DNA of 64,000 nt, taken from positions 1-64,000 of IMG/VR virus record IMGVR_UViG_3300034071_000719; one strand, 5' to 3'. Positions within the stretch are counted from its first letter, which is position 1. Every line of letters starts with the position of its first letter. The notes beneath the pieces were generated by a model. The model was not told the origin of the DNA. It did no database searches and saw only the letters and a list, made by a program, of their open reading frames with translations. The position numbers and the translations under genes were made by a program. Below, in pieces: positions 38,863-56,951 of this stretch. The stretch is from a virus.

Positions 38863-39707
38863 CACCACATCAAGCACAGCAAGGCTTTATGACCATTGCA
38901 CAAAACACAGCAGACGTTGATTATTTACGTCTCGCTTACGTACAAGCAATGAGCATTAAACTAACAATGCCCGGTAGCTTGTATGCAGTAGCAGTTGATA
39001 AAAATACATTAGAGCAAGTAACAGAACAACATCGTAAAGTGTTTGATTATGTAATTACAATTGAAAATGACTTAGCGCAAGACGAAACTTGGAAGTTAAG
39101 TAACGAGTGGCAAGCATTTTATCTCACACCATTCAAAGAAACAATTAAACTTGAAAGCGATATTGTGTTTACAAGAAGCATTGCACACTGGTGGACTGCT
39201 TTTAGATTAAAAAATGTTGTACTAAGCACAGGCTGTAGAGATTATAAGCAAGAGTTAAGTAACTCACGTGAATATAGAAAGTTGTTTGATGATAACGAAT
39301 TACCCGATACCTACAATGGACTAATGTATTTTAGGTACACAAGAGAAGCAACACAGTTCTTTACACTAGCAGAACAAATATTTAAAAACTGGGCGTATCT
39401 ACGTGATAATGTATTACTTAACTGTCGCGACGATAACCCAACTACTGATGTTGTTTATGCGTTAACTGCAAAGTTAATTGGCGTAGAAGATTGTACATTG
39501 TCGATGGACTTTATTAACTTTGTGCATATGAAACCTGCTATTAACAAGTGGACAAGTACGCCGTGGCCCGAATTAGTAATGTGCGAAACAGATTTGCCAA
39601 TGGTACGTATAGCAAATACAAATCAATATCATCCGATTCACTATCACGAAAAGAGTTGGGTAACTGATGCATTAGTTAAGGAGTACGAAGATGAATTCAG
39701 AAGATGA
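38853..39707 (+). CDS. GT-A fold glycosyltransferase-like protein, paralogue of the upstream gene
   Basis: LTPFKETIKLESD (ExD), YNGLMYF, TDVVYAL, FVHMKP, IHYH.K. Confidence 0.68.
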   Translation: MRITPHQAQQGFMTIAQNTADVDYLRLAYVQAMSIKLTMPGSLYAVAVDKNTLEQVTEQHRKVFDYVITIENDLAQDETWKLSNEWQAFYLTPFKETIKLESDIVFTRSIAHWWTAFRLKNVVLSTGCRDYKQELSNSREYRKLFDDNELPDTYNGLMYFRYTREATQFFTLAEQIFKNWAYLRDNVLLNCRDDNPTTDVVYALTAKLIGVEDCTLSMDFINFVHMKPAINKWTSTPWPELVMCETDLPMVRIANTNQYHPIHYHEKSWVTDALVKEYEDEFRR

Positions 39708-40041
39708 ATTAGCTAAAGCATTTGCAATGATACAACCTATCATAGAAGAAGTTAAAGAATACAGAATACACTATGAAGAAGATGGGCACATTACAATGTG
39801 TACAATGATAAATCACCCAGATGATACAACATATATCGTTGTTAGCAAAGATGAATACGACAACTACTTCCGCTATACAATTGTAGATGGTAAGCTGAAA
39901 AAGATTGACAACAACCCCGGTATTCGTGTACAATTAGTAAGTAGCTCCGAGGGTTATGCTGTAGTAAAGAAACATGCTGGATTAATATTAGAACCAACCG
40001 ATACTTACAATGAGATTGAATACTATGACACAAATCGTTGA
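39691..40041 (+). CDS. Hypothetical protein
   Basis: 116-aa acidic ORF with an AAGGAG RBS, overlapping both neighbours. Confidence 0.7.
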   Translation: MNSEDELAKAFAMIQPIIEEVKEYRIHYEEDGHITMCTMINHPDDTTYIVVSKDEYDNYFRYTIVDGKLKKIDNNPGIRVQLVSSSEGYAVVKKHAGLILEPTDTYNEIEYYDTNR

Positions 40042-40921
40042 TATTGCAGATTTAGACTGCATCTACCTAAGTTATGATGAGCCAAAAAAAGAAGAGTTTT
40101 GGATTAAGATTCAAAATATGGTTCCGTGGGCTAAACGTGTAGATAGTGTTAAAGGCAGTGATGCCGCACATAAAGCAGCCGCATCTGCAAGTGATACTGA
40201 ACGCTTTGTATTAATCGATGGCGACAACTTACCCGACCCAGAGTTCTTTAACTTACAACTTACATTAGATGATACTAATAAAGATGTAGTCTTTCGTTGG
40301 AAGGCACGTAACATCATTAATGGCTTACAGTACGGTAACGGTGGTATGAGTTGCTGGACTAAAGAATTCATCAATAATATGCGCACACACGAAGCAAGCA
40401 ACGGTGATGATGATACTGCCGTTGAGTTTTGCTTTGACCCACGCTATTGGGCAATGAATGATTGCTACAGCACAACATACCCAAATCAAAGTCCATATCA
40501 AGCGTGGAGAGCTGGCTTTAGAGAAGGCGTTAAGATGTGTTTAGATCGCGGCACTAAGCCAAATCTATTAGATTTTGAGAAGCGTGTACATGATCGGAAC
40601 TACGATCATTTAAGCATATGGCATAATGTAGGCATGGACGTAGAGAATGGTGACTGGGCAATGTACGGTGCTAAACTTGGCACATATATGACTATGATTA
40701 CAGATTGGGATTATAGAGAAGTACAAGACTTTGATGCATTGGATAAAATTTGGCATCAAAACAAAGTACTAAACTTAGTAGAAGAATGCAATGAAATGTC
40801 ACATACATTAAATGTAAAATTAGGATTACCCGCACCACATTTAACAGCAGACCAAAGTAAATTCTTTAAATATCATTACAAGAGTATGTTTAAGAATAAA
40901 GGAGTAATGTATCGTGAATGA
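40025..40921 (+). CDS. GT-A (GT2-like) glycosyltransferase
   Basis: IYLSYDEP, AHKAAA, FVLIDGDN (DxD), NGLQYGNGG, AWRAGFREGVKM. Confidence 0.68.
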   Translation: MTQIVDIADLDCIYLSYDEPKKEEFWIKIQNMVPWAKRVDSVKGSDAAHKAAASASDTERFVLIDGDNLPDPEFFNLQLTLDDTNKDVVFRWKARNIINGLQYGNGGMSCWTKEFINNMRTHEASNGDDDTAVEFCFDPRYWAMNDCYSTTYPNQSPYQAWRAGFREGVKMCLDRGTKPNLLDFEKRVHDRNYDHLSIWHNVGMDVENGDWAMYGAKLGTYMTMITDWDYREVQDFDALDKIWHQNKVLNLVEECNEMSHTLNVKLGLPAPHLTADQSKFFKYHYKSMFKNKGVMYRE

Positions 40922-41537: not shown

Positions 41538-42206
41538 ATGTTAATAACTTACGGAAGTAATAAACCGTTATGTCTGATTGGTGTTCCAAAATCAGTAATG
41601 ACACAAGAAGGATTATTTTATCTTGAGAACGGATATAATGATCCAGATCACACAGCAGGACCAATTACAGTAATCACTCCAGAAGAATTTTTGGCATTAA
41701 ATGATAAAACTGTATATCAATATTGTGTAGTGTTTACACTTGATACAGTTGCTAGAACAAATATAATTAATATTTTAGAAGAGCAACAACTAGATTGCTT
41801 TAGTTATGTACATCATACATCGGTGATACGCAACGATATTGCAATAACTGAAGTTATTGGACACGGTAGTTTTCTGTGCTCATTTAATACAGTTATGATG
41901 GGCGCAACCATCGGAAAACATTGCATATTAGAAACATATTGCCTTATATCACATTATAGTACATTAGCGGATAATGTTATTATACATTCGGGCACATTGA
42001 TTGCTGGTAAAACTAAAATCGGTAGCGGGTGTATATTTAATTTTAAAGCAGCCTCACTTAATGCATTAACAATATGTGATGGTGTTGAAGTGGGTGCATT
42101 AAGTACAGTCACTAAAGACATAGCTGTATCGGGACGATACATGGGTTCGATTGCACGATATGTGGGACCTCTAATTATATTTCAAGACCCGGGAACAACA
42201 GGATAG
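41538..42206 (+). CDS. Hexapeptide-repeat sugar acetyltransferase (NeuD/PglD-like)
   Basis: Left-handed beta-helix repeats (VIGHGS, TIGKHC, KIGSGC), ISH, GALSTVTKDI...G.YMG. Confidence 0.8.
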   Translation: MLITYGSNKPLCLIGVPKSVMTQEGLFYLENGYNDPDHTAGPITVITPEEFLALNDKTVYQYCVVFTLDTVARTNIINILEEQQLDCFSYVHHTSVIRNDIAITEVIGHGSFLCSFNTVMMGATIGKHCILETYCLISHYSTLADNVIIHSGTLIAGKTKIGSGCIFNFKAASLNALTICDGVEVGALSTVTKDIAVSGRYMGSIARYVGPLIIFQDPGTTG

Positions 42207-42208
42207 TT

Positions 42209-42901
42209 ATGTATAAATCATGGCCATTGGCCCCAACATATGAATGGCGACGCCGAGAATTAGATCAATTAACTGCACAAGGTTATGTGTGGAATTCTCC
42301 ATCAGATGTAATTGATCTATTTGAAAAGAAAGTAGCTACTTTTGCGGGCAGTAAATATGCAGTAGCAATTGATTGTTGTTCACATGGTATATTTCTTGCA
42401 TTAAAATATCTCAAAGCATTTGGCCCAATAGATGTCCCAGCACGTACATATATATCAGTACCGGCGCAAGTTATCCATGCTGGGTGCAGTGTTAATTTTA
42501 CACAAGAAGAATGGACTGGTGTATATCAATTAACTCCGTATCCTATTTTTGATGGAGCAGTGCGTTGGCAAAAGGATATGTACAAGGGTGGGTTCCATAT
42601 ACTATCATTTCAGATTAAAAAGCGTATACCAATCGGCAAAGGCGGCATGATTCTAACTGATGATATAGATGCATACAATTGGCTTAAACGAGCTAGTCAT
42701 GATGGTAGAACATTTGGCGTTAATTTTGATCAAGATACAGTTGAAATGATAGGCTGGCACTATAATATGACTCCCGAAGATGCTGCAAGAGGTATTATGC
42801 TAATGGACCAAACAGCTGATTTCAATGAAGATTCGGGCAATTATAAATCGTACACCGATTTGTCACTATTGTCAATTTTTACAAAAACAACGGAGAAGTA
42901 A
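42209..42901 (+). CDS. DegT/DnrJ/EryC1/StrS aminotransferase, short form
   Basis: FEKKVA...KYAVAIDCCSHG, VPARTY, IFDGA, SFQIKK...GKGGMILTDD, GWHYNM. Confidence 0.8.
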   Translation: MYKSWPLAPTYEWRRRELDQLTAQGYVWNSPSDVIDLFEKKVATFAGSKYAVAIDCCSHGIFLALKYLKAFGPIDVPARTYISVPAQVIHAGCSVNFTQEEWTGVYQLTPYPIFDGAVRWQKDMYKGGFHILSFQIKKRIPIGKGGMILTDDIDAYNWLKRASHDGRTFGVNFDQDTVEMIGWHYNMTPEDAARGIMLMDQTADFNEDSGNYKSYTDLSLLSIFTKTTEK

Positions 42902-43935
42902 TGAAAGTAGATATGCAAAAACATTGGGGCAGTAAAGAACTTTATTACGTGCCCGAGTTGATTTCTAAAATAATTCATAGTATGCAAACAGATGGAACGG
43001 TATATCTATTCACTAATGAAGGAAAAAATGGTGCCAACAATGGTTTGTATAAATTATTAGATGACTTGTGCTTGTACTGGAAATGGGACAAGTCGGCTAT
43101 TACAATAGAAACATCAAACTTTATGCCTACTTCATGGTTAACAACAGAATTATTGCCAAACTATGGTAGTAGCCACCCTGACTATAATATAAAACGCACT
43201 TCGCTTAATATGATGGCGGCATATATGGATATTACTAGTAAAATATATTCATGGAATAAAGAAAAATATTACGGAATGTTTATTGCTCGTGCATCATCCG
43301 ACAGGATTTACGCTGCACATGCTCATACAAAATTTAAATTTAAGGAAATGGGGCTAACAAGTTTTAGAGAAAATTTATTCGAATATATGAGTTATCCTGA
43401 TCTAGTAGATTACTTTATGCATTCAAATCAGACATACAAAGAAATGCTAGAAGTTGTGCCACACAGTGATATAGAAGAGTTAATCCCGTCTCCGAATTCG
43501 CCATTAATTACTCCGCCGTATAATACCAGTGATTGGGGTAAGGTATACGAAAAAATAGCCATTGATATTGTATGCGAAACTAGTACTGAACCAAATTGTG
43601 GTGATGTGTCAGAGAAAGTATATCGCCCATTGTATTATAAACGACCGTTTTTATTAATTGGCTCACCGGGGCAATTTGCTATTCTGCATGAGTTAGGATT
43701 TAAAACATTTGATGGGATAATCGACGAATCCTACGATAAATTAACCGGAGTTGCTCGTGTCAATAAAGTATTTGAAATATTAGAACAATTAATTTTAGAC
43801 AACAGAATGGATACGCTGTTAGATGAATGTAAAGAAATACTTGAACATAACCATAAACAAATGATTCGATTATCTATTGAACATAGAGTAAAGCATAGAG
43901 ACGAGCTAAAAAAATTGATGGATAACGATGAGTAG
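42901..43935 (+). CDS. Putative GT-B glycosyltransferase-like protein (GT10-like motif)
   Basis: IDIVCET...VSEKVYRP...RPFLLIG...LGFKTF...DESYD. Confidence 0.45.
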   Translation: MKVDMQKHWGSKELYYVPELISKIIHSMQTDGTVYLFTNEGKNGANNGLYKLLDDLCLYWKWDKSAITIETSNFMPTSWLTTELLPNYGSSHPDYNIKRTSLNMMAAYMDITSKIYSWNKEKYYGMFIARASSDRIYAAHAHTKFKFKEMGLTSFRENLFEYMSYPDLVDYFMHSNQTYKEMLEVVPHSDIEELIPSPNSPLITPPYNTSDWGKVYEKIAIDIVCETSTEPNCGDVSEKVYRPLYYKRPFLLIGSPGQFAILHELGFKTFDGIIDESYDKLTGVARVNKVFEILEQLILDNRMDTLLDECKEILEHNHKQMIRLSIEHRVKHRDELKKLMDNDE

Positions 43936-45313
43936 TAATTTTATGTCGGCTGCAGAGGAAATGAAGGACAAGTTAGGTCCTGCACTCTGCTTGGCTAAAT
44001 GGCAACAAGTAAGTCTACATTTGCCAACTGGACTAACAAACAGTTGCTATCATCCGCCCTTACACGAAATTGATAGTGCGCCACTACTATTTAATCCGGG
44101 TGCGCTACACAATACTGACTACAAGAAACAGCAACGTAAACTTATGCTAGAGCAAACACGCCCGGCAGAATGTAGTTATTGTTGGAGTGCAGAAGATAAC
44201 AACCAACTAAGCGACAGACACTATCGCTCCGGTGAACCATGGGCGGCTGAACACTATGAAGAAATAGTAAACGCACCATGGGACCAAGACGTTGTACCGA
44301 GTTATGTTGAAGTAAACTTCAGTCATGGCTGTAACTTAGCATGTTCATATTGCTCCCCACAATACTCAACAGAGTGGGGTAAGGATACAGACAGATGGGG
44401 TGCGTATCCAACAAGCGTACCACACAATGCGCCTGAACACTTTCAAGGTCGCCGCAAGCCAATCCCAGTACGCGAAGCTAATCCGTATGTTGAAGCATTT
44501 TGGCGTTGGTGGCCCGAGCTGTATCCTAAGCTAAAACACTTTAGAATGACTGGTGGTGAACCGCTTATGGATAAGAATACGCACCGTGTATTTGATTACA
44601 TACTTGCACTACCAAAAAGTGATTTACACGTTGATGTAACTAGTAACTTCAGTGTTGAGCCACAAGTATTTGAAAAGTATTTAGACAAAGTTAAACAACT
44701 ATGCACGGGCGAACGTATAGAACACTTTATGCAGTATGTTAGTCTAGATACTGGACTTCCTGCACATGCAGAATATATACGCGATGGGCTATATTGGGAT
44801 AGAGTCATGCGATATTCTAACGCTTTCCTAACAGAAGTGCCATACCGCAATAGCCTAACGTTTATTATCACAATGAACAATTTAAACATACTTGGACTAA
44901 AACTTTTATTGACTCAGATATTAGAGATGCGTAACAAATACAGCACAACTTATCAACGTGTGTGGTTCGATACGCCACTATTACGTAGCCCAACCTATCA
45001 AAGTTTACAAATACTCCCAGCAAGTTATGTTCGCATATTAGAAGATGTTGTTACGTTTATGCGAACAAATCAAGCAGACGAAACAGCTGATAACTTCGAA
45101 GGCTTTAAAGATTATGAAATACAACGTATGGAACGTAATGTTGAATGGATGAAACAAGGTTGCGAACTCTCGAAGGAATATGTTACAATACAAAGAGCAG
45201 ACTTCTATAGATTTTTTAATGAATATGATAAACGCAGAGGTTTAAACTTTTTGGAAACATTCCCACAGATGACAGAATTTTGGCAGGAGTGCAAATACCA
45301 TGCCGAAACGTAA
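43928..45313 (+). CDS. Radical SAM protein 1, N-terminal twitch/SPASM-like domain
   Basis: CLAKW...SCYH...CSYC; CNLACSYC; TGGEPL. Confidence 0.9.
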   Translation: MSSNFMSAAEEMKDKLGPALCLAKWQQVSLHLPTGLTNSCYHPPLHEIDSAPLLFNPGALHNTDYKKQQRKLMLEQTRPAECSYCWSAEDNNQLSDRHYRSGEPWAAEHYEEIVNAPWDQDVVPSYVEVNFSHGCNLACSYCSPQYSTEWGKDTDRWGAYPTSVPHNAPEHFQGRRKPIPVREANPYVEAFWRWWPELYPKLKHFRMTGGEPLMDKNTHRVFDYILALPKSDLHVDVTSNFSVEPQVFEKYLDKVKQLCTGERIEHFMQYVSLDTGLPAHAEYIRDGLYWDRVMRYSNAFLTEVPYRNSLTFIITMNNLNILGLKLLLTQILEMRNKYSTTYQRVWFDTPLLRSPTYQSLQILPASYVRILEDVVTFMRTNQADETADNFEGFKDYEIQRMERNVEWMKQGCELSKEYVTIQRADFYRFFNEYDKRRGLNFLETFPQMTEFWQECKYHAET

Positions 45314-46460
45314 TAATGCATTTTGCATTAAACCGTGGACGCAAGCATGTATCAGAACAAATGGTGATATTACTTTATGCTGTCAGAGTTTAGAAAAATC
45401 AAACTTTAATTTAAAAACATCAACAATAGATGCTTGGTGGAATAGTGAATTTGTGTCTACAACCCGAACTCAAATGTTAAACAAAACTATTCCACCGGCA
45501 TGCATGAGTTGTGCAGCAGAAGAACAACAAGGTAGTATTAGTTTACGGCAAAAATCTAATAAAGAATATAAAATTTTTGAGCAATACGCAGAGCAAACAC
45601 TATCACATTTTCGTTATCCTATGCTATCGCCTATCGAAATGGAAATACAACTTACTAATTTATGTAATTTAAAATGTTTAATGTGTGCCGAAGAGGCAAG
45701 TAGTGCTTTATTAAGCGAGAATATGCGCTTAAGAATAAACATATCCAAGCCCGATGATTACACTTTAAGTGATAGTGACTTTAATAAGATACAGGCATGG
45801 ATTGCAACCAAACCTAAATCGATTAATTTTCGCGGTGGCGAGCCACTCGTGGTGCCAGAAATTAAAAGGTTATTACAGTGGGGAGTAGAGCAGGAATTGT
45901 TGGCAGACACAGTAATACATATATCTACAAATGCAACTAAATTAGATAATGAATGGATGTCTATACTAACATCAATTAAGCAATTACGAATCATGGTCAG
46001 TATAGATGCAATCGGACAGTTAAATGATTATATTCGATTCGGTAGTAAATGGGATATAATTAACACCAATGTTGCTAAATTATCACGTATACCAGGAATA
46101 AATTTAGTAGTACATGCCACTATACAAAATTTAAATATCCTATCTATAGGAAATTTGATTACTTGGTGTGAATTAAATAGTTACTTTTTTGATTTTACTA
46201 TTCTGTCAGAGCCGACTATATTCAAACTTACTAATTTACCATCTAATTTGTTGTCTGACGCAATGCATAATCTTAGGGAATTGTCTGATACGGCAGGTAA
46301 TGGAGCACACCTGGCTGACATTGTTGAGCATGCGATTCAATCGTCGGATTCCCAATGGGATAATTTTAAAAATGAAATTAATATGAGAGATCAAGCAAGG
46401 AATACATCTATTCTAGATATTATTCCACAATTCAGAGAGTATTGGCATGCCAAAAATTAA
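45300..46460 (+). CDS. Radical SAM protein 2, N-terminal twitch/SPASM-like domain
   Basis: CIKPW...LCC...CMSC; CNLKCLMC; GGEPL. Confidence 0.9.
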   Translation: MPKRNNAFCIKPWTQACIRTNGDITLCCQSLEKSNFNLKTSTIDAWWNSEFVSTTRTQMLNKTIPPACMSCAAEEQQGSISLRQKSNKEYKIFEQYAEQTLSHFRYPMLSPIEMEIQLTNLCNLKCLMCAEEASSALLSENMRLRINISKPDDYTLSDSDFNKIQAWIATKPKSINFRGGEPLVVPEIKRLLQWGVEQELLADTVIHISTNATKLDNEWMSILTSIKQLRIMVSIDAIGQLNDYIRFGSKWDIINTNVAKLSRIPGINLVVHATIQNLNILSIGNLITWCELNSYFFDFTILSEPTIFKLTNLPSNLLSDAMHNLRELSDTAGNGAHLADIVEHAIQSSDSQWDNFKNEINMRDQARNTSILDIIPQFREYWHAKN

Positions 46461-47781
46461 CAACGAAACAGATTTAGAATATAAGCGTAGAGTGATCGAC
46501 ATTAAGTCGGATAGCTTTTGCGCGGCCAAATGGTACAATGCTACTATATGGTTAGGGTCAGGGCAGACTACAAGTTGCCATCATCCGCTACCACATCAAA
46601 TCGATATAGAAGCAATTAAAACAAATCCAAGTGCAATACACAACACTCCACAAAAGAAAGAACAGCGTAGACAAATGCAAGTAGGCGAACGACCCGCGGG
46701 CTGTGACTACTGCTGGAAGATAGAAGACATGAGCACAGATGCAGTTAGTGACCGTGTATATAAGACTGTAATTTATAATGACAAGGACTTAGATGATGCA
46801 TACAATTTACCTGCAAGCGAAGATGTTAACTTACAAACTTTGGAAATTGCCTTTGACAGAACTTGTCAGTTTGCTTGTTCTTACTGCAATCCTGCTTTTA
46901 GCACTAGTTGGGTTAGGGATATACATCAAAACGGCGCATACACCAATTTGGTTTCAGATGGCAGAAATCACTTTACTCATGAGCATAATAGTAGTCAATT
47001 GTTTAAACTCAATGAAGTTAATCCATATGTCGAAGCGTTCTTCAAATGGTGGGAAACAGACTTACACAAAACATTAAAAGAGCTACGCATTACAGGTGGC
47101 GAACCACTAATGTCGGATAACACATGGCGCTTAATCGATTGGTTTAAAGCACACAAAGGCGAAAGTAAAACACGTCTTGCTATTAACAGTAATCTCGGCT
47201 TTAAGCGTGAGATACTTGAACGCTTACTTGATAGCACACAAGGACTTGAGCTTGACATTTACACTAGCAACGAGTCAATGGGTAACCATGCAGAATATAT
47301 ACGTGATGGGCTAGATTGGAAACAATGGAGTGAGAATTTAATATTTCTACTAGAGTCTAAAAAAGTACGTGGCATACATGTCATGGGTACAATCAATGCA
47401 TTGTGCTTATCTAGTCTGAGTGAATTCTTATGGAATATGATGAAACTTAAAGAGAAATATGGTCGGGAAGCATTATCGTTTACATTAAACATTTTACGCT
47501 TTCCTAGCTTCCAAAGTCCGCTTATACTTCCGATCGAACTTCGTACAAAATATAGTAACGAGCTTGCAGAATTTTTGTTTAATAATAAAGAGAATGCGGT
47601 ATTACACGAACATGAACGTGAACACATTAAACGTTTGATTGATTACTTAAAGCAAGATACACAAGTTGACAGTAATTTACAAAACGATTTTAAACAGTTT
47701 TATCAGCAATACGACCAACGTCGTGACAAAGACTTTAAATACACGTTTACACAATTAACTAACTGGTACGAAACACTATGA
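46447..47781 (+). CDS. Radical SAM protein 3, N-terminal twitch/SPASM-like domain
   Basis: CAAKW...SCHH...CDYC; CQFACSYC; TGGEPL. Confidence 0.9.
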   Translation: MPKINNETDLEYKRRVIDIKSDSFCAAKWYNATIWLGSGQTTSCHHPLPHQIDIEAIKTNPSAIHNTPQKKEQRRQMQVGERPAGCDYCWKIEDMSTDAVSDRVYKTVIYNDKDLDDAYNLPASEDVNLQTLEIAFDRTCQFACSYCNPAFSTSWVRDIHQNGAYTNLVSDGRNHFTHEHNSSQLFKLNEVNPYVEAFFKWWETDLHKTLKELRITGGEPLMSDNTWRLIDWFKAHKGESKTRLAINSNLGFKREILERLLDSTQGLELDIYTSNESMGNHAEYIRDGLDWKQWSENLIFLLESKKVRGIHVMGTINALCLSSLSEFLWNMMKLKEKYGREALSFTLNILRFPSFQSPLILPIELRTKYSNELAEFLFNNKENAVLHEHEREHIKRLIDYLKQDTQVDSNLQNDFKQFYQQYDQRRDKDFKYTFTQLTNWYETL

Positions 47782-49112
47782 AAATAAAAAAGACCAAGGG
47801 CAATTTTAAAAACTATGATTATAATAGTACCATGCCCTTATACTGTGACCCTGCAGACTTAACAGCAAAACATAAAGAACTCTTAACAGAAAGTAAAGTA
47901 TTCTGTATACTGCCGTGGATTCATATGCATGCGTTTCCAGACGGAAGAGCATACCCTTGCTGTTTAGGCGAAATGTGGCAACCGATTGGTGACTTGCGCA
48001 AAAATACAATGGAAGAAGTATGGAATGATGCGCCTATGCGTAAGATGCGTACAAACATGTTAAATGATAAACCGTGTAAAGAATGTACTAAGTGTTACGA
48101 ACTAGAAGATAATAGTTTCTTTAGTATGCGCAATAGCTTTAGTAAGGACTTCGGTCATTTAATCGAACTAAGCGATGCTACCAACGATGATGGTAGCTTA
48201 GATGATTTTACATTACGTTATTATGATGTACGTTTTAGTAATTTATGTAATTTTCGTTGCCGTAGCTGTGGTCCTATCTTTAGTAGTAATTGGTACAATG
48301 ACCATGTTAAACTGTATGGTAAAAAGCCCGAGGTACTAGGTAAAGAAATGGCAATGGTTGAATATGCCGGCCGCCACAAGTATGATATGTGGGAGCAAAT
48401 GCAAGAACATATCCCTAACTTAGAACAAATATACTTTGCTGGTGGCGAACCACTTATCATGGAAGAGCATTACATGATTCTTAAAGAATTGGTAGCTCAA
48501 AAATTATTCCATGTTCGTTTAATATATAATACTAACTTTAGCGAAATGGTATACAAAGGGCAAGATGTATTTGAACTTTGGAAATTGTTTGATAGCGTAA
48601 GCATCGGCGCAAGTTTAGATGATAATTATGCACGTGGCGAATACATGCGCAAAGGACAAGAGTGGGAACAAACAGAAGCCAATCGCCGTCGAATGTTAGA
48701 AGTCTGTCCAAATGTAGACTTTTATGTAAGTAGCACTGTTAGCTTATATAATGTATTACATGTAACAGAATTTCATAGAGATTGGGTTGAAAAAGGACTA
48801 GTGCGCCCGCAAGATTGGAATATTAATCTATGCCAAAGTCCAGACAGAATTCGTGCAGATGTATTACCTGATGTATATAAACAACAAGCAATTAAGAAAA
48901 TTGAAGAGCACATAAAATGGCTTGAACCGCAAGATTCTATTAGTAGAGCAACTGGCGGATACAAAGGGATTATTAATTTCTTAAATCAACACGATAACAG
49001 TCACTTTTTACCTGAATTCTTTAAGTCTAATGATGAAGTTGATGTAGTTAGAGAAGAGAAGTTCGAAGAAGTATTTCCAGAATATGCAGAGTTGAGATCA
49101 TATGTCAAATAA
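47778..49112 (+). CDS. Radical SAM protein 4, N-terminal twitch/SPASM-like domain
   Basis: CILPW...PCC...CTKC; CNFRCRSC; AGGEPL. Confidence 0.9.
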   Translation: MKIKKTKGNFKNYDYNSTMPLYCDPADLTAKHKELLTESKVFCILPWIHMHAFPDGRAYPCCLGEMWQPIGDLRKNTMEEVWNDAPMRKMRTNMLNDKPCKECTKCYELEDNSFFSMRNSFSKDFGHLIELSDATNDDGSLDDFTLRYYDVRFSNLCNFRCRSCGPIFSSNWYNDHVKLYGKKPEVLGKEMAMVEYAGRHKYDMWEQMQEHIPNLEQIYFAGGEPLIMEEHYMILKELVAQKLFHVRLIYNTNFSEMVYKGQDVFELWKLFDSVSIGASLDDNYARGEYMRKGQEWEQTEANRRRMLEVCPNVDFYVSSTVSLYNVLHVTEFHRDWVEKGLVRPQDWNINLCQSPDRIRADVLPDVYKQQAIKKIEEHIKWLEPQDSISRATGGYKGIINFLNQHDNSHFLPEFFKSNDEVDVVREEKFEEVFPEYAELRSYVK

Positions 49113-50313
49113 TGAATTACCTAAAACTATATGTATGGTACCTTGGATTAGTGTCGAAACTAGCCCAATAAGTACTACCCGTCCTTGCTGTTTAGCATTA
49201 GACGAAATTACTCGCACCGACGGTACTAAGTACAGTCTTAAAGATAGTACATTAGAAGAAGTTTATCATAGTCCATATATGCAAAATTTACGTCAAGAGT
49301 TTTTAGATGGCAAGAAACCAGAAACATGTAAAAGATGCTGGGATGAAGAAGATGCTGGCCGCGCAAGTAAACGAATAAACAGTAGAATTCGTCTTAAAGA
49401 GTACTACGATCAAATTGATTGGACTAATACCAATCCTAATCAGCTGTGGTTCATTGACTTAAAACTAGGTAATATTTGCAATCTAAAATGTCGTATATGT
49501 GGTAGTTGGTCTAGTAGTAAATGGGCACAAGAAGAAATCGCATACATGCCGGAACTTAAAAATAAAAAAGAACATCTTGCATATAAATTTTTAACAGATG
49601 GAGCATGGCCACGGGAAAGTGTTGATTTTTGGGAGAACTTAAAATCATTATTACCAAACATTAAGTACTTTGAATTTACAGGTGGTGAGCCATTTTTAAT
49701 CAAAGAACACTTTGAGCTTTTGCAGTATGCAGTCGAACATGGCTATAGTAAAAATATTGAAATACATTATAATACAAATGGAACAGTGTTTCCAGAGAAT
49801 GGTGCTGAACTATGGAATCAATTTAAACGTGTAGAAGTTGCATTTAGTATAGACAACGTTGGCGCTCAATTTGAGTACGAACGGTATGGCGCAATCTGGG
49901 ATGAAGTACAAACAAACATAGCTAAGTTCAATGCAATGCGCAATGATATAATTACTACGCAAATATGTTTAACTATCAATATACAAAACGTATACTATCT
50001 GCCAGAATTATGTGAATGGATTAATACACAAACATTTGACCATACATATTTTAATATGTTGCATGATCCAAATCACATGAACATTAACAATATGACTCCT
50101 GCAGCAAACAAGTTAGTTATCCAACGTCTGTCGGGATATGCTTTTTCACCTAGACATAAAGCTGAAATAATTCGTATTATTAAATTTATCGAAAACGGCA
50201 AAGGCGGTAGCGGACAAGATTTTATGCGGAAAATGCAAACAACAGATGCATATCGCAATGAAAGTTTCTTGACCACACACAAAGAAATTGCACTTGCAAT
50301 GGGCTATAAATGA
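49102..50313 (+). CDS. Radical SAM protein 5, N-terminal twitch/SPASM-like domain
   Basis: CMVPW...PCC...CKRC; CNLKCRIC; TGGEPF. Confidence 0.9.
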   Translation: MSNNELPKTICMVPWISVETSPISTTRPCCLALDEITRTDGTKYSLKDSTLEEVYHSPYMQNLRQEFLDGKKPETCKRCWDEEDAGRASKRINSRIRLKEYYDQIDWTNTNPNQLWFIDLKLGNICNLKCRICGSWSSSKWAQEEIAYMPELKNKKEHLAYKFLTDGAWPRESVDFWENLKSLLPNIKYFEFTGGEPFLIKEHFELLQYAVEHGYSKNIEIHYNTNGTVFPENGAELWNQFKRVEVAFSIDNVGAQFEYERYGAIWDEVQTNIAKFNAMRNDIITTQICLTINIQNVYYLPELCEWINTQTFDHTYFNMLHDPNHMNINNMTPAANKLVIQRLSGYAFSPRHKAEIIRIIKFIENGKGGSGQDFMRKMQTTDAYRNESFLTTHKEIALAMGYK

Positions 50314-51347
50314 TAACACGGTGTAATGCGCCGTGGGTAGCACGGTTTATTAATCCAACTGGGCGAGTAACACCGTGTTGTTACATAGTACCGACTAATA
50401 TAGAAAAACTCAAAGAATCATTTGATAACGGTATAAAAAGCCCAGCATGTGGTTATTGTTGGTTGGCAGAAAAAAATAATGTACATAGTCCTCGGTTAGA
50501 TTATAATAACTTGCTGGGCAACACAGTAACTCACTTAACTATTAATTTAGGTAATTACTGCAATGCTGAATGTATAATGTGCAACGGTAATACTAGTAGT
50601 AGCCGCAATTCATGGGCGCGATTACATAGCCCAAAAGAATTTAAAATTAATGTAATACCCGAAGCCAATATTGATAATTTTGATTTTTTGGAATATCCGG
50701 ATTTAACAACATTAACTCTATTAGGTGGCGAACCAGCAATACATCCGAGCACTATTAAAATTTTAAATCAATTAATAGAACAGGATTTAGCAAAGAATGT
50801 AAACATTAGTTTAAATACTAATGCCAGTAAACTTGATGATATATTGATAGACAGACTCCGTTGTTTTAAAAGTATATCGGTTACATTAAGTATCGACGGA
50901 ACCGGCAAGTATTTTGAATATCAGCGCCGCCCCCTAAGATGGGATCAAGTTAAAGTAATTGCTGAGCAATGGATGGAGATTAGTGAAAGCATAGTTATTA
51001 ATTATGTAGTAACTGCGATTAGTGTGTGGTCATTTAATGATTTTATTTCGTGGTTTGTAGAGTTGCCTGATTCAATTCATAACAAACAGCCACAAATTTC
51101 AATGAATCAGGTCTGGGTGATGAATCATGCATACCTAACGTTGGCTGTATTAACAGACGATCAAAAACAACAATGGTTAGTAGAAGCAATTGATCATCCG
51201 GCTAAGCAAGATATAATAAACATTTTAAATAGTGTAACTTATAACGCAGCTCAATGTACAATCTTCAAAGAAAAAATGAAATTAGAAGATATAACTGCTA
51301 AATTAAAGTTTGCTGAGATATTTCCGGACTGGCTACTAAATGACTAA
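50310..51347 (+). CDS. Radical SAM protein 6, N-terminal twitch/SPASM-like domain
   Basis: CNAPW...PCC...CGYC; CNAECIMC; LGGEP. Confidence 0.9.
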   Translation: MITRCNAPWVARFINPTGRVTPCCYIVPTNIEKLKESFDNGIKSPACGYCWLAEKNNVHSPRLDYNNLLGNTVTHLTINLGNYCNAECIMCNGNTSSSRNSWARLHSPKEFKINVIPEANIDNFDFLEYPDLTTLTLLGGEPAIHPSTIKILNQLIEQDLAKNVNISLNTNASKLDDILIDRLRCFKSISVTLSIDGTGKYFEYQRRPLRWDQVKVIAEQWMEISESIVINYVVTAISVWSFNDFISWFVELPDSIHNKQPQISMNQVWVMNHAYLTLAVLTDDQKQQWLVEAIDHPAKQDIINILNSVTYNAAQCTIFKEKMKLEDITAKLKFAEIFPDWLLND

Positions 51348-52626
51348 ACCACAAACACTTTGTTTAGCACCGTGGGTACACACATATCTTTCACCACAAA
51401 CTGAAAGACGTATGTGTTGTGCTAGTCGCGAGCCGGCGCAGAACTTTGAACAGTATATCGACGTCTCGGCGGGTACAGGGCGTTATATACCAATAACTCT
51501 GGATGAACACTGGAATAGCGAGCACATGCGGTCGGTCCGTCGTCGCATGATTGCTGGGGAAACCCTCCCAGAGTGTGAGGTATGTAATGATAAACTGTTG
51601 AATACATCAGTTTACCGTAGTTATTTTGATCAGATGTTTGGTGATAAATATTTACAAGTAACAGAAACAACAGATTCAACGGGTTACACAACAATGCGCC
51701 CTGTAAGTTGGGATTATAGATTTAGTAATCTGTGCAACTTTAAATGTCGTATGTGTGGTGATATGTTAAGCAGTGCTTGGGAAACTGAGCAACGTCAACA
51801 TAATATGATTAACTGGCATAACCCCAAGAACAATTGGATGAAGCCAGAAGTAAAGCAAGAAATTACAGCATTTCAAGATAGTCAAATAGAACAAGAGTTT
51901 GCTCGAGCAGTCGAAGATCATCAAGTTGAGGAAGTATATTGGGTAGGCGGTGAGCCACTAATGTATGAACAACACTGGCGTTATATGAAACGCATTATTG
52001 ATTTAGGAGATGGCAAACATGCTTACGCACGGTACAATACAAATCTTAGCCGCGTCAACTATCGTGGCGTCAATCTCTACACTGACATTTTATCTGGGCT
52101 ACGCGATTGGCAAATCTGTGCCAGTCTCGACGGAACTGGAGCAATTGGAGAATATATTAGAACAGGACTTGATTATAATCAATGGCTTGAAAATTTCCGT
52201 GAAGGAGTTAGAATTGCAAGTCACAGACGCCAAATGCGAATTGACTTCACTCTCACACTGCCCGGCATGTTTGAAGTCACAAACATTACCCAGCTTGCTT
52301 CGGAAGAAAACGTAGACATACTGGCTAAAGTTGTTTTCGGCTTTAGCCCAGACATTATCCTTAGTCCCCTTGCACTACCACGCGACTTACTACATCCATG
52401 GTTAGACGAACTAATCCCGCAAACTTCTGGAGCCATGCAAGATATACTTGTACAGCTAAAATCACGACCAACGTTCGACGAGCAATGGCCTGATACATAT
52501 AAGAAAGAGCTTGACAAAGGTAAGCAACGTGTGTTACAATTAGAAAGTATACGTAACGATACATATACGTTAGCAGACATATTAAAAGAGAGACCCGAAG
52601 TATATGAATGGTACCAATCAATCTAA
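51340..52626 (+). CDS. Radical SAM protein 7, N-terminal twitch/SPASM-like domain
   Basis: CLAPW...MCC...CEVC; CNFKCRMC; VGGEPL. Confidence 0.9.
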   Translation: MTKPQTLCLAPWVHTYLSPQTERRMCCASREPAQNFEQYIDVSAGTGRYIPITLDEHWNSEHMRSVRRRMIAGETLPECEVCNDKLLNTSVYRSYFDQMFGDKYLQVTETTDSTGYTTMRPVSWDYRFSNLCNFKCRMCGDMLSSAWETEQRQHNMINWHNPKNNWMKPEVKQEITAFQDSQIEQEFARAVEDHQVEEVYWVGGEPLMYEQHWRYMKRIIDLGDGKHAYARYNTNLSRVNYRGVNLYTDILSGLRDWQICASLDGTGAIGEYIRTGLDYNQWLENFREGVRIASHRRQMRIDFTLTLPGMFEVTNITQLASEENVDILAKVVFGFSPDIILSPLALPRDLLHPWLDELIPQTSGAMQDILVQLKSRPTFDEQWPDTYKKELDKGKQRVLQLESIRNDTYTLADILKERPEVYEWYQSI

Positions 52627-53776
52627 AGTAACTGTAACACTACGCAACCCGCTAGATTTTGCAGATCAACTTGAATACTATATTATTCCTAATGATACAC
52701 AGTTGGCAGCCGATTGGATTATTGCCCTCAAAGAAATTCTATCAGCTAATAATCAATTAGAGAAGAATTATTGTTTTATGGGATTTCCGGAGTCTGCTAG
52801 AACACTAGAATATCTATGCGAACAAACAAATATTGCAGTTGAAATAATTAATAAATTTGATTTTACTCTTTACGGATTGGATAATTATATCATTGAAGAA
52901 TGGTTTAATCTTGATACAGTTCGATTTCCTGCTTCCTACCCTATCGAAGGTTCATTTGATAAACCCGGTACCGTCACTAATTCTAAACGTGTAGAGATTG
53001 GATTATATCCAAAACACAGTATATTGAATAGATTACATACACATTTCGAGAGATTACAAGGAACAGTTGATAATCTTAGCGAGTATTACAAAGTAGCAGA
53101 TTACAATACAAAATATGCTATTAGACAATTAAATATATTGTGTCACGAAATGGAATCGTTGATACTGAGTCAGCGAAAAAAAGCAAGCACACCGGAATGG
53201 ATTAGACCTAGCCAAATTACGACTTTCTTAGGAATAAATAGATTTCCGTTGGATAAATCACATATTACTGGATTTGCTAGCAACGGGTACGACCGTAGAT
53301 TTGGTCATGTATACATGCACTGGGCACAAATAGGCAAGACATTAATGGAAGTATTTCACGATGAAGCGGCACCCGATCTGACCTCAACTATATGTGAGAC
53401 CATTAATAGTTTAAAATATTATAGCGGTGAGTTTGATATTGAATGGGCAAAGGATGTTACCAAAGCAGATAATTATCCGTGGGTAACTAAACAAGCTGCT
53501 GAATTTACTGCATGGCTAATTCAGCAAGGCCTCGATATTACTGATCCTTCATTGAGCCTAGGTTATCTTCCTATAGGTCAGGTCGATCTTATTGCTAGTT
53601 TTGGAACCAGCGATATGGTTACTGTATGGGATATGTTAAGTACGCACCTAGACATATACAAAATAGAAGTCGACGGAGTAAGTAACACTTTTGATTATTG
53701 TTGGTCAGACGATGACTATAAACAAAAACAAATAGATATGATGAAACCGGGATATGATTTTAGTAGCCGCAGGTGA
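52604..53776 (+). CDS. Hypothetical protein
   Basis: 390-aa ORF overlapping both neighbours; LNRLHTHFE, LCHEME and YMHWAQIGKT segments. Confidence 0.75.
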   Translation: MNGTNQSKVTVTLRNPLDFADQLEYYIIPNDTQLAADWIIALKEILSANNQLEKNYCFMGFPESARTLEYLCEQTNIAVEIINKFDFTLYGLDNYIIEEWFNLDTVRFPASYPIEGSFDKPGTVTNSKRVEIGLYPKHSILNRLHTHFERLQGTVDNLSEYYKVADYNTKYAIRQLNILCHEMESLILSQRKKASTPEWIRPSQITTFLGINRFPLDKSHITGFASNGYDRRFGHVYMHWAQIGKTLMEVFHDEAAPDLTSTICETINSLKYYSGEFDIEWAKDVTKADNYPWVTKQAAEFTAWLIQQGLDITDPSLSLGYLPIGQVDLIASFGTSDMVTVWDMLSTHLDIYKIEVDGVSNTFDYCWSDDDYKQKQIDMMKPGYDFSSRR

Positions 53777-54464
53777 TAGTTTTGTATGGGGAATAGAACT
53801 AGCTAATTGCGTTCACTATAACATTGGTGGGCACAGCCTAAATTCCTTTCCGGCTTTGTTAGCTCAACAATCTAATATGAGATATATATGTGCAGCAATG
53901 CCGGGTAATGCTAATAATGCAATTGGTAGAATGGCAATTGACGCATTGAGCAAAATAGATGACGATAAGTTTTTATTAGTTGAATGGACTTATCCACAAC
54001 GCTGTGAATTTAGAATTAACGACAAGTGGGTTAGCATAAACAGCTGGCATACTGACGCTAAAGAATTTAGTGAAAGTTATTTTAAACATGCCGGCGATAG
54101 CGAATACTACGAAATTTACTCTATTCTTAAAGAAATAGTATTTCTGCAACAATATTGCATGATAAACAAGATACCATATATGTTTATGACTGCTAACAAT
54201 CATTTCTATAAACATGAAAATTATTTTAGATACAGTGATACTAATTTGACGAACTTATTTAATCAAATTAATTGGGATAATTGGTTTTGGTTTGATGCTC
54301 CTGCACCAGCAACTGATCAGCACACACCAAGAGGATTCTACCAATGGGCAGTTGAAAATAAGTATAAAGTAGGCCGAAATGGCCACCCCCTTGAAGAAGC
54401 ACATAAAGATGCTGCAATATTAATTAGGAAGAAATTCAATGAATTGGCTGCTAAACATAATTAA
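53754..54464 (+). CDS. SGNH-like protein
   Basis: AGDSFVWG, PGNAN, WT...R.E, GHPLEEAH. Confidence 0.7.
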   Translation: MILVAAGDSFVWGIELANCVHYNIGGHSLNSFPALLAQQSNMRYICAAMPGNANNAIGRMAIDALSKIDDDKFLLVEWTYPQRCEFRINDKWVSINSWHTDAKEFSESYFKHAGDSEYYEIYSILKEIVFLQQYCMINKIPYMFMTANNHFYKHENYFRYSDTNLTNLFNQINWDNWFWFDAPAPATDQHTPRGFYQWAVENKYKVGRNGHPLEEAHKDAAILIRKKFNELAAKHN

Positions 54465-54540
54465 TCGTGTTAAATTAGAAATACGTTATCGTAAGAAACT
54501 TAAAGAATTGCGTAAGCGCGATCCATTTATCTATAAATGA
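54439..54540 (+). CDS. 33-aa basic peptide MNWLLNIINRVKLEIRYRKKLKELRKRDPFIYK (absent from the ORF track)
   Basis: AGGAAG RBS upstream; fills the gap between two SGNH genes; its stop overlaps the next start (ATGA). Confidence 0.75.
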   Translation: MNWLLNIINRVKLEIRYRKKLKELRKRDPFIYK

Positions 54541-55082
54541 TTTTAGTAAACGGCGATAGTTTTACTGCTGGTGAAGAAAGTGATATTGCCTGGCCGGAGT
54601 TAATTGCTGATACTGTAAATATTGCTGTACCTGGTGCTAGCAATGATTATATACTTAGATCAACAGTTGATTATGTAGATAATAATAAAGTTGATTATGT
54701 AATAATAGCGTGGACTAGCCCCAATCGAATTGAATTACCAAACAAACACCTAACATCTGCTAGTTATAAGAAGTATGGACCAGTGGTTAATAGTGTATTT
54801 GCTGAATGGGATACAGAGTGGGCATATAAGAAATTTATTGCGCAAACTAAATTATTAGATTGTTACTTAACAATGCCGCATTTGTTTGTAAGTACATTTG
54901 ACATACAAACAGTGGCACAAGGTAGTGGGTTAGATTGTTGGCTAGGCTGGCCACACGAAGGATTAGTAGAGTGGATGGGCAACTGTCTAAAAGGTTCTGG
55001 TGGACACCCACTGGAATTAGGACATCAACGAATAGCGGAAAAAATCAATGAACATATTAGGCATCTCGGCTGGGTTTCATGA
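54537..55082 (+). CDS. SGNH-like protein
   Basis: NGDSFTAG, PGASND, WTSPNR.E, GHPLELGH. Confidence 0.72.
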   Translation: MILVNGDSFTAGEESDIAWPELIADTVNIAVPGASNDYILRSTVDYVDNNKVDYVIIAWTSPNRIELPNKHLTSASYKKYGPVVNSVFAEWDTEWAYKKFIAQTKLLDCYLTMPHLFVSTFDIQTVAQGSGLDCWLGWPHEGLVEWMGNCLKGSGGHPLELGHQRIAEKINEHIRHLGWVS

Positions 55083-56538
55083 CGCAGCAATTACATTAAT
55101 CAAAGGCGATGATATTGTCTTTGCAGGTCACGCTGAACGTTATAGCAAAATTAAACACGACCCAAACTTAAACGTTGAAATGCTCAGAGATTGTATATTC
55201 AATTATGGCGAACCTGATTTAATTGCATATTATGAAAGACCGTGGGTTAAAAAGACACGACAACTTTATGCTGGACAATACAGTGAACTAACTAAAGGAT
55301 GGAGTGTACGCAACATGATACACAAAGTCGCTCCGTGGTTAAGTTCTACTCCAATCAAAACATACAATCATCACCTATCACATGCGGCCGCTGGCTTTCA
55401 AACTAGCCCGTTTGATGATGCAACAGTTGTTGTAATTGATGCAATTGGCGAGTGGGATACTATTAGCATATGGTCTGCAAAATATGTCAATGGTAAGGCA
55501 CAATATACAAGAGTGTGGCGCCAATTATACCCACACAGCATCGGCTTAATGTACAGTGCATTTACTAAAGAAGTTGGCCTACGTCCGCTAGATGAAGAAT
55601 ACATTTTAATGGGCATGGCGGGCTGGGCAAAACAAGACACAACACGTTTAAGTGACCAACTTTCAAATTGGTTAGTTGACCACGAGTTTGAGCTAACATT
55701 AAAACATAACTTACATATCGGTCTACCCGACAATGATATAAAAGCAAAATGGAATGACTTTGAGATTGCTAATGCGGCTCAGACATTAACAGAACAATTG
55801 ATACACAATATAATGTATAAAGCAAAAACACTAGCACCTAGTAGTAACTTGGTATACTCGGGCGGTGTTGCGCTTAACTGTAGTGCTAATAGAGATTTAG
55901 GAGAATATTTTGATAACATTTGGATTATGCCCAATCCTGGCGATGCTGGTAGTAGCCTCGGTGCTGCAGCGTTGGCGCACGGTAGCAAACTTAACTGGGT
56001 GGATGCTTTTCTCGGGCATAACATTACTGGCCCTTATCCCTGTACTGATATTGTATCTGCATTAATGACAAACAAGATTGTTGGCGTTGCCAATGGTCGT
56101 GCAGAATTTGGACCAAGAGCGTTGGGCAACAGAAGTTTACTAGCTGACCCACGCGGCCCTGATATTAAAGATGCTGTAAACTTAATTAAACGTCGTCAAC
56201 AGTTTAGACCATTTGCTCCTATAATACTAGAGGAGTTTGTTGATGAGTATTTTGAAATGCCCAATGGATTTAAAACAAGTCCGTACATGCAAACGACTGC
56301 AAAGTGCTTGCGTCCTAACGAATTTCCTGCTATAATACATATAGATGGTACAAGTAGAGTACAGACTGTTCCACGTGATAACAGTGGTATACGTGAACTA
56401 TTGTGTTTATGGTATACATGGACAGGTTGTCCGATGTTGCTTAATACAAGTTTAAATGTACGCGGTGAACCAATGGTAAATGATCGTGCCGATGCAGATC
56501 GCTTTGAAGAACTGTATGGAGTAAAGGTACTAAGTTGA
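55048..56538 (+). CDS. O-carbamoyltransferase (NodU/CmcH/TobZ family)
   Basis: ILGISAGFHDAA, ERYS..KH, HHLSHAA, DAIGE, GGVALNC, GDAG, EFGPRALGNRS, FRPFAP, DGTSRVQ, LNTSLN. Confidence 0.95.
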   Translation: MNILGISAGFHDAAITLIKGDDIVFAGHAERYSKIKHDPNLNVEMLRDCIFNYGEPDLIAYYERPWVKKTRQLYAGQYSELTKGWSVRNMIHKVAPWLSSTPIKTYNHHLSHAAAGFQTSPFDDATVVVIDAIGEWDTISIWSAKYVNGKAQYTRVWRQLYPHSIGLMYSAFTKEVGLRPLDEEYILMGMAGWAKQDTTRLSDQLSNWLVDHEFELTLKHNLHIGLPDNDIKAKWNDFEIANAAQTLTEQLIHNIMYKAKTLAPSSNLVYSGGVALNCSANRDLGEYFDNIWIMPNPGDAGSSLGAAALAHGSKLNWVDAFLGHNITGPYPCTDIVSALMTNKIVGVANGRAEFGPRALGNRSLLADPRGPDIKDAVNLIKRRQQFRPFAPIILEEFVDEYFEMPNGFKTSPYMQTTAKCLRPNEFPAIIHIDGTSRVQTVPRDNSGIRELLCLWYTWTGCPMLLNTSLNVRGEPMVNDRADADRFEELYGVKVLS

Positions 56539-56951
56539 AAATATTAATTATGGGATTGCCTGGGTCAGGTAAAACGACCCTCGCTAGCGCACTATTAAAA
56601 TTAATAGATTGTGTATGGTATAATGCCGATGCAGTTAGAAAAAATTACAATGATTGGGATTTTTCTGAAGAAGGCAGACTACGTCAAGCAACACGTATGA
56701 AAACGTTAGCTGATGATAGCAAAGGTCATGTTATATGCGACTTTGTTGCGCCTACTAAAGAGATACGTGATATATTTGATGCCGACTATGTTATATGGGT
56801 CGACACAATTAAAAAAGGTAGATTTAAAGATACAAATAAAGTATTCGAACCACCAACACAATACGACATGCGAGTAATAGAACAAGATGCTGAACGTTGG
56901 GCAACTATTATTGCACATGCCATTTCTATAAAGGAATTAAATGAAAGATAA
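56535..56951 (+). CDS. Adenylylsulfate (APS) kinase-like P-loop kinase
   Basis: IMGLPGSGKTTLA, NADAVR, DFSEEGRLRQ, DFVAP, FEPP; TTG start overlapping the upstream stop. Confidence 0.7.
   Translation: MKILIMGLPGSGKTTLASALLKLIDCVWYNADAVRKNYNDWDFSEEGRLRQATRMKTLADDSKGHVICDFVAPTKEIRDIFDADYVIWVDTIKKGRFKDTNKVFEPPTQYDMRVIEQDAERWATIIAHAISIKELNER

Follow-up and report, generated by a model that had tools for sequence, protein, structure and literature searches.

The DNA analysed here, called the window, comprises positions 1 to 64,000 of the 79.6-kb IMG/VR record IMGVR_UViG_3300034071_000719, which is 23% complete according to CheckV. The positions 43928–52626 of the window are occupied by seven consecutive open reading frames (ORFs) of 345–461 residues each, which are co-oriented and overlapping, and which encode paralogous radical S-adenosylmethionine (SAM) enzymes, designated R1 to R7. 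R1 is located at 43928–45313 (461 aa), R2 at 45300–46460 (386 aa), R3 at 46447–47781 (444 aa), R4 at 47778–49112 (444 aa), R5 at 49102–50313 (403 aa), R6 at 50310–51347 (345 aa) and R7 at 51340–52626 (428 aa), all on the plus strand. The pairwise identity among the seven proteins is 18–34% according to the alignment.

All seven proteins are matched end to end by the NCBIfam model NF033640 (N_Twi_rSAM, twitch domain-containing radical SAM protein), for which the curated cut-off is 170 bits. The scores range from 174 to 388 bits (R1, 283.6; R2, 285.5; R3, 291.3; R4, 387.9; R5, 352.3; R6, 174.2; R7, 289.5), and the matches were also confirmed at the DNA level. R6 is barely above the cut-off and has a shortened twitch domain; its seven cluster cysteines and the GGEP motif are all retained. 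Only Radical_SAM, SPASM and Fer4_12 were detected by Pfam in the seven proteins. Radical_SAM matches every copy, with scores below the gathering score of 29.5 bits in R3 (25.5), R4 (23.5) and R7 (27.2). SPASM is located N-terminal to Radical_SAM; it is above the cut-off in R2, R4 and R5, below it in R6 and R7, and gives no match in R1 and R3. According to the family match and the intact motifs, the seven genes should encode functional members of the N_Twi_rSAM family.

The auxiliary cysteines are N-terminal in all seven proteins, in the order C-x3-W, C-x18-C and CxxC, and are followed by CxxxCxxC and GGEP. The C-x18-C spacing is common to all copies, the next CxxC is 22–51 residues further on, and the auxiliary module precedes CxxxCxxC by 33–53 residues. 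In the numbering of R1, the invariant positions are Cys21, Trp25, Cys40, Cys82, Cys85, Cys135/Cys139/Cys142 and GGEP209–212, together with Asn240, Ser272, Tyr283, Arg285 and Asp434. The seven-cysteine SPASM pattern, with its second CxxCx5Cx3C block, is absent both before and after the core, and only four auxiliary cysteines are invariant. Thus, one auxiliary cluster is expected, and the domain is a twitch domain. Two subtypes are distinguished: S-C-x-H-P and NPYVEAF characterise R1 and R3, and CC is found in the remaining five. The R1/R3 clade is supported in a phylogenetic tree by the Shimodaira–Hasegawa-like approximate likelihood ratio test (SH-aLRT) with a value of 99. This tree, like every branching order given below, is a quick tree with SH-aLRT support only. 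The initial annotation, made from the sequence alone, had described seven consecutive overlapping radical SAM genes with these motifs, an N-terminal twitch domain in reversed order and two subtypes; the description is correct in every detail.

As NCBIfam already curates NF033640, the reversed domain order is not a new architecture. What is new here is the fixed row of five paralogues described below, together with its phage module. The family is large, with 7,528 representative clusters at an E value of 1e-30 or better in an exhaustive profile search, and R4 alone has more than 7,500 homologues. It is rare among sampled bacterial genomes: the NF033640 cut-off was passed by three of the 401 Pseudomonadota genomes sampled, and by no genome in a control set of 14. 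Given this rarity, an array of seven copies is far beyond chance. A search of the literature and of solved structures gave no assayed member of NF033640, no solved structure and no paper. Likewise, no paper was found on 'N-terminal twitch', on radical SAM with phage and carbamoyltransferase, or on radical SAM with glycan and O-antigen.

To define conservation, a comparison set of 29 related loci was used, all but three of which are on viral contigs. R1 was found in 24 of the loci, R3 and R5 in 27 each, and R7 in 25; orthologues of R4, the best-conserved copy, are 53–83% identical and are present in 26 IMG/VR contigs. The row R1-R3-R4-R5-R7 is therefore called the core, and it recurs in 24–27 of the 29 loci. 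R2 has its best match in just five loci, and R6 has no orthologue in the set. R2 and R6 are accessory additions to the five-gene core. One relative, with a record of 338.5 kb that is 97% complete, carries eight copies, including an extra one located about 1 kb from an NTP_transferase-family gene.

The core copies are under strong purifying selection. Against the orthologues of related phages, dN is 0.12–0.28, dS is saturated and dN/dS is at most 0.11 (about 0.06 for R1, 0.09–0.11 for R3, 0.04–0.11 for R5 and 0.07–0.10 for R7). The dN/dS values cover the five core copies, and R2 and R6 were judged by the integrity of their motifs alone. The scores against the equivalog models of housekeeping radical SAM enzymes are 16–37 bits, compared with cut-offs of 131–284 bits. 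MoaA (at most 37 bits against 284), QueE (at most 33 against 260) and NrdG (at most 24 against 131) were each rejected on this basis. Prokaryotic viperin (NF038283) was also rejected, with 19–33 bits against a cut-off of 180, and the peptide-maturase equivalogs of NCBIfam all remained far below their cut-offs for the seven proteins. Clustering with a housekeeping family and decay of the copies, the two outcomes that the initial annotation had named as contrary to it, were not seen.

In the tree, the phage sequences of each core paralogue group together with support. The R1 clade has a support of 100 with Bdellovibrionota as its sister, and R1, R3, R4 and R7 all have sister sequences from Bdellovibrionota or Acidobacteriota. 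No bacterial sister was seen for R5, apart from a contig that is assigned to a Haliscomenobacter metagenome-assembled genome (MAG) and is probably from a phage. The nearest bacterial relatives of R2 are copies from the O-antigen locus of a Pseudomonadota genome, G106 (SH-aLRT 93), and R6 is on a long branch of 2.9. The bacterial counterparts, where present, are 35–47% identical to the phage copies, a higher identity than that among the paralogues. Therefore, the subfamilies are older than the phage lineage. As judged from the sequences, the seven copies are anciently diverged and intact.

The AlphaFold2 model of R4 has a predicted local distance difference test (pLDDT) value of 82.8. Among solved structures, the best-matching cores are those of BlsE, SkfB, CteB and anSME (Z 11.0–11.5), and with viperin included the range is Z 10.5–11.5. 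For the N-terminal region, the only sequence match to a solved chain is the twitch region of BtrN, with E values of 0.012–0.013, and BtrN was not recovered by the profile of the N-terminal domain alone. BtrN is 2-deoxy-scyllo-inosamine dehydrogenase, the founding twitch enzyme. Its auxiliary cluster is ligated by four cysteines and is proposed to act in electron transfer (PMC10337720). The BtrN-like Cys4 ligation predicted here suggests redox-coupled chemistry. The likeness to BtrN thus consists of one Cys4-ligated [4Fe-4S] auxiliary cluster and, by the reading given below, a sugar-like substrate class. The twitch domain of BtrN, however, is C-terminal whereas that of the array is N-terminal, the similarity is marginal, and the genes of the aminocyclitol pathway are absent here. 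Assignment as BtrN-type dehydrogenases was rejected, since the domain is N-terminal and the marginal BtrN match is lost with the N-terminal profile. The nearest description of the array enzymes is NF033640 itself, with the same N-terminal twitch domain followed by a radical SAM core; it is a database model with no assigned function.

The bacterial members of the family give hints about the substrate. One of the three Pseudomonadota carriers is a MAG with phage contigs, and the two genuine cases are glycan loci. The locus of G106 encodes RmlC, RmlD, Wzm and a Wzt/Wzt_C protein fused in one frame to N_Twi_rSAM, with three more copies of the family. It also encodes a TylF O-methyltransferase, further methyltransferases and a WbsX glycosyltransferase, and is of the O-antigen ATP-binding cassette (ABC) export type. 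In the other genome (G177), an N_Twi_rSAM copy is located beside a GT2 gene and an NAD-epimerase gene. The fusion to Wzt/Wzt_C and the copies among the Rml genes in G106 connect the family with ABC-transporter-dependent O-antigen systems, in which Wzm/Wzt export is coupled to chain-end modification; the phage module differs in having no Wzm or Wzt, and its glycosyltransferase (GT)-like genes are not recognised by Pfam.

Fusions were found among the longer metagenomic proteins. The partners are Wzt with Wzt_C (P0124), a Tectonin lectin (P0163 and P0167), an EryCIII-like GT1 C-domain (P0181) and SAM methyltransferases including the FkbM type. Three of these four kinds of partner handle carbohydrates, and two of the three bind polymers. 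Fusions of two or three radical SAM units crowd the top of the list of 7,528 clusters. Many metagenomic proteins of 790–1,466 aa (P0214–P0251) contain two or three complete N_Twi_rSAM units head to tail. According to these multi-unit fusions, the paralogues probably act as a physical unit.

The array is embedded in a module that lies behind the tail-fibre genes, and this placement is conserved in the related loci. The module genes common to these loci are those at 35147 (fibre-like), 36782, 38101, 38853, 40010, 42901, 52604, 53754 and 54537, the carbamoyltransferase gene and the P-loop kinase-like gene. The core row and its conserved module partners are present in 21–27 of the 29 loci. The genes at 36782, 38101, 38853, 40010, 42901, 52604, 53754, 54537 and 57434 gave nothing in Pfam, PHROGs or NCBIfam at the cut-offs, and profile searches of the PDB sequences with five of the families gave nothing significant. 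The following features are all on the plus strand unless otherwise indicated.

Four families of the module are GT-like, and they are leads only. The genes at 38101–38862 and 38853–39707 are a paralogous pair (hhalign, 98% between the two families) that is GT-A/GT8-like by motif only and is present in 22 of the 29 loci; the GT8 hidden Markov model (HMM) of Pfam gave no match, and the tests against Escherichia coli WaaJ/WaaO (hhalign) and glycogenin were not significant. The gene at 40010–40921 encodes a conserved protein of 303 aa with a D-G-D motif and weak GT2/GT-A signals, and is found in 23 of the 29 loci. The GT2 HMM of Pfam matches it at 40154–40336 with an E value of 0.0065, below the cut-off, and its nearest named Atlas cluster, as a lead only, is GT2 at 0.87. 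The gene at 42901–43935, directly before R1, encodes a 344-aa family with a GT10-like lead (Atlas GT10 at 0.79; 21 of 29 loci). Its structure neighbours are fused to Epimerase/GDP_Man_Dehyd, and its paralogues are interleaved with radical SAM genes in two relatives (L047 and L073); tests against Pfam and, by hhalign, against phage GT10 were not significant. The leads for these four families thus consist of motifs, Atlas clusters and one sub-threshold GT2 match.

R7 is followed at 52604–53776 by a gene for a 390-aa protein, and this order is found in 23 of the 29 loci. Its AlphaFold2 model (pLDDT 80.4) shows a cyclophilin-like barrel with a helical insert, with a VIA Z of 9.1 to cyclophilin-fold chains; Foldseek gave no match for the model. 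Two paralogous SGNH/GDSL-like genes follow at 53754–54464 and 54537–55082 (hhalign, 99.8% between them). Their alignments show the motifs GDS(F), G-x-N and HPLE-x-x-H, and neither gave a Pfam or PDB match. The gene at 55048–56538 encodes a carbamoyltransferase of the NodU/CmcH/TobZ type (Carbam_trans_N, E 1e-38; Carbam_trans_C, E 1e-48) and is present in 21 of the 29 loci. A carbamoyltransferase gene is also located near R4-like genes in four Bdellovibrionota loci and near an R3-like gene of the cultured Ralstonia jumbo phage RsoM2USA.

In RsoM2USA (MG752970.1, 343.8 kb), both linkages recur at two separate places. One region has the order SGNH-like, R3-like radical SAM, SGNH-like and carbamoyltransferase, and the other has the order fibre-like, 38101-like, 38853-like, 40010-like and radical SAM. 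These mini-modules (L083 and L084) are located at about 123.5–129.0 kb and 216.6–223.6 kb, and their genes are all annotated as hypothetical. ORF202 of RsoM2USA is 51% identical to R3, and ORF349 is a further homologue. The paper on this phage makes no mention of radical SAM or carbamoyltransferase, and megablast of the array DNA against cultured phages gave no match. Other cultured carriers of the family are the Vibrio phages K566, K567, QD01, VS1 and VS2.

According to the bacterial O-antigen ABC-export locus and the fusions with Wzt, Tectonin, GT1 and methyltransferase domains, the evidence favours sugar or glycan tailoring over the other substrate classes for the array, and we put its probability at roughly one half. 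In the proposed mechanism, each enzyme would bind a SAM-cleaving [4Fe-4S] cluster at CxxxCxxC and one Cys4-ligated auxiliary [4Fe-4S] cluster in the twitch domain before the barrel. Each paralogue would abstract a hydrogen atom from a different C–H position of a sugar residue, either in a nucleotide-sugar or, as seems more likely, in a glycan that is growing or finished. The auxiliary cluster may accept an electron, as proposed for that of BtrN, and the net reaction would be oxidation, dehydration or epimerisation. The assignment of position-specific dehydrogenase or epimerase chemistry, made in the initial annotation, is purely conjectural. The glycan would be built by the neighbouring GT-like proteins, with carbamoyl and acyl groups put on or removed by the carbamoyltransferase and the SGNH-like pair. 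As the module is always located behind tail-fibre genes, the product would most plausibly decorate the virion fibres or another phage-made glycoconjugate.

A more specific form of this proposal is tentative, and we regard it as possible rather than probable. The five-enzyme core would be an oxygen-sensitive radical glycan-editing line, with several distinct C–H functionalisations on one polymeric or carrier-linked glycan, a carbohydrate chemistry that has not been described. It would serve freshwater jumbo phages in the completion of a virion or fibre glycan, and would be common to them and the predatory Bdellovibrionota.

Several points weigh against glycan tailoring. None of the four GT-like families passes a Pfam, PDB or hhalign test. 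The structural matches of R4 are tied, are limited to the generic core and favour no substrate over another. The family has its largest expansion in Bdellovibrionota, with 7–11 copies in each genome, and there the neighbours are mostly other radical SAM genes with few sugar genes, which give no clear substrate signal. The family has no known substrate, SPASM/twitch enzymes are more often peptide maturases, and we know of no precedent for five radical steps on one glycan.

The peptide maturases lead to the strongest alternative, that the array introduces cross-links, epimerisations or oxidations into a phage structural protein, such as the tail fibres, or into a small precursor peptide. We consider this distinctly less probable than glycan tailoring, at perhaps one chance in several. 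The best structural matches include SkfB, CteB and anSME, and the core region has weak NCBIfam similarity to many peptide maturases. The placement directly behind the fibre genes and the cyclophilin-fold partner after R7 are also consistent with a protein substrate. SkfB, CteB, SuiB, PqqE and anSME share a related core and a cysteine-rich auxiliary domain with the array (Z 10–11.4); the array enzymes differ from these SPASM maturases in the four auxiliary cysteines for one cluster, in the N-terminal domain, and in that no recognition element (RRE) was detected. No RRE/PqqD-like leader-recognition domain was found by Pfam in the seven proteins. The ORFs at 37800, 39691 and 54439 were read as candidate precursors and none is cysteine-rich or repetitive, although no systematic precursor search was made. 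The bacterial contexts and fusions are related to glycans and not to peptides.

It is somewhat less likely again that the array makes a diffusible small molecule during infection, such as a nucleoside, a cyclitol, an aminoglycoside-like compound or another natural product. Radical decarboxylation, dehydration and deamination of sugars are known from BlsE, AprD4 and DesII, and the substrates of these enzymes, like that of BtrN, are small molecules in every case. Among the structural matches of the R4 model, BlsE ranks first (Z 11.5; root-mean-square deviation 3.9 over 219 residues). However, BlsE, AprD4 and DesII act singly and not in sets of five, and the match concerns the generic core and is tied with the peptide maturases. 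A contig of a Bdellovibrionales MAG (G410:C80:34000-73999; L075 and L076) contains about 20 radical SAM genes and a carbamoyltransferase gene in about 35 kb. Eight of them are full N_Twi_rSAM genes and about ten are of other types, and this unusually dense cluster resembles a biosynthetic gene cluster. Against a small molecule, no scaffold-forming enzyme was recognised in the phage module, and the Wzt exporter and lectin fusions point to polymers. No match to PF01761 (DHQ_synthase), the family of dehydroquinate (DHQ) synthase and 2-deoxy-scyllo-inosose (2-DOI) synthase, was found in this record (G000), the 97%-complete relative (G004) or a third relative (G005), whereas 11 of 14 controls match.

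The initial annotation had proposed an aminoglycoside-like sugar-tailoring line. The sugar-tailoring part is consistent with the O-antigen locus, the Wzt, Tectonin and GT1 fusions and the conserved carbamoyltransferase, and the aminoglycoside-like detail fails because no gene of the 2-DOI synthase family was found. The DegT-like and acetyltransferase genes lend this detail no support either. Inside the module, a NeuD/PglB/VioB-like hexapeptide sugar N-acetyltransferase gene (41538–42206) and a shortened DegT-like gene of 230 aa (42209–42901) are window-specific inserts, and the inserts at 41538–42901 are found in only one or two of the 29 loci. Two separated pieces of the DegT-like ORF match the Pfam model of 360 positions, which may indicate an aminotransferase gene that is shortened or degenerate. 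Another DegT gene, at 60033–61124 on the minus strand, has the full length.

Hypermodification of DNA or nucleotides by the array together with the kinase-like gene and the carbamoyltransferase is unlikely. Genes for dCMP (deoxycytidylate) deaminase, the P-loop kinase-like protein and thymidylate synthase (ThyA) are located just downstream, and some base hypermodifications of phages involve radical SAM enzymes. However, a related strain from a freshwater run lacks the kinase-like gene (joint 56528 to 56941), and ThyA is present in 1 of the 29 loci only. The conserved partners are the fibre genes and the SGNH-like and GT-like proteins, and the bacterial homologues are in O-antigen loci. The view that the seven genes are copies of a housekeeping radical SAM gene that are redundant or in decay, for which nothing beyond weak superfamily-level matches was found, is ruled out for the five core copies by the MoaA, QueE and NrdG scores, the divergence of the paralogues, the bacterial counterparts of R1, R3, R4 and R7, the dN/dS values and the cluster ligands, which are intact in all copies.

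If the substrate is a glycan, as preferred here, the array would be the first multi-step radical SAM pathway for glycan tailoring. It would then also add a new level to the chemistry of virions or cell surfaces, with relevance to phage–host recognition. The large and strongly conserved family to which it belongs has no known substrate, structure or paper. The phage spends seven genes on the array and, if each enzyme binds two [4Fe-4S] clusters as predicted, about 14 such clusters per enzyme set. The contributions of the present analysis are the fusions to Wzt, Tectonin and GT1, those of several radical SAM units, the expansion in Bdellovibrionota, the recurring partnership with the carbamoyltransferase and SGNH-like genes, and the cultured carriers. 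As RsoM2USA and the five Vibrio phages are in culture, the question is directly testable.

Some smaller features of the module region were also observed. The P-loop kinase-like gene (56535–56951) encodes 138 aa here, compared with about 265 aa for the homologues in relatives. An ORF of 33 aa (54439–54540) encodes a basic peptide with a C-terminal DPFIYK and extends into the beginning of the second SGNH-like gene. An 872-aa ORF (57434–60052), located downstream of the dCMP deaminase gene, has regions that are 28–30% identical to the 40010 family via the RsoM2USA homologues, and this ORF may be a multi-domain relative of the GT-A-like 40010 protein.

The sole real intergenic gap ahead of the module, at 37724–37779 on the plus strand, is occupied by sigma-70-like hexamers (TTGACA-17-TAAACT), with a 10-bp hairpin and a run of T residues after them. 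This is a consensus match only, and sigma-70-like sites across the window are at the chance level overall. The T4 late-promoter octamer TATAAATA occurs once in the whole window, compared with 14.4 expected from shuffles, and CTAAATA is not enriched in the window. The structural genes at 7194, 14306, 17719 and 35147 are preceded by AAATA(C/A)-type motifs and then TATAA.

The window encodes gp46/47-like SbcCD proteins, a gp55-like late sigma factor, baseplate hub and wedge proteins, and an ORF of 4,255 aa. Therefore, it is derived from a T4-like jumbo phage. The 4,255-aa ORF (17719–30486) is located between a baseplate wedge gene and the fibre-like genes. Complete copies of the module are also found on contigs in bacterial MAGs, two of them in Haliscomenobacter (L047 and L073; 148 and 183 kb). 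The module is present as well on contigs (L043–L046 among these) binned to Verrucomicrobia, Rickettsiales, Betaproteobacteria, Flavobacterium and Polynucleobacter MAGs. All of these are probably mis-binned phage contigs, or else hints of hosts. The array was detected at 50–99% of the sampled words in lake and freshwater metagenomes of many studies from 2017 to 2024, and identical contigs were found in one independent run. Two metatranscriptome runs contain short contigs that are identical to parts of R3, R4, R7 and genes next to them, which is a hint of transcription rather than proof of it.

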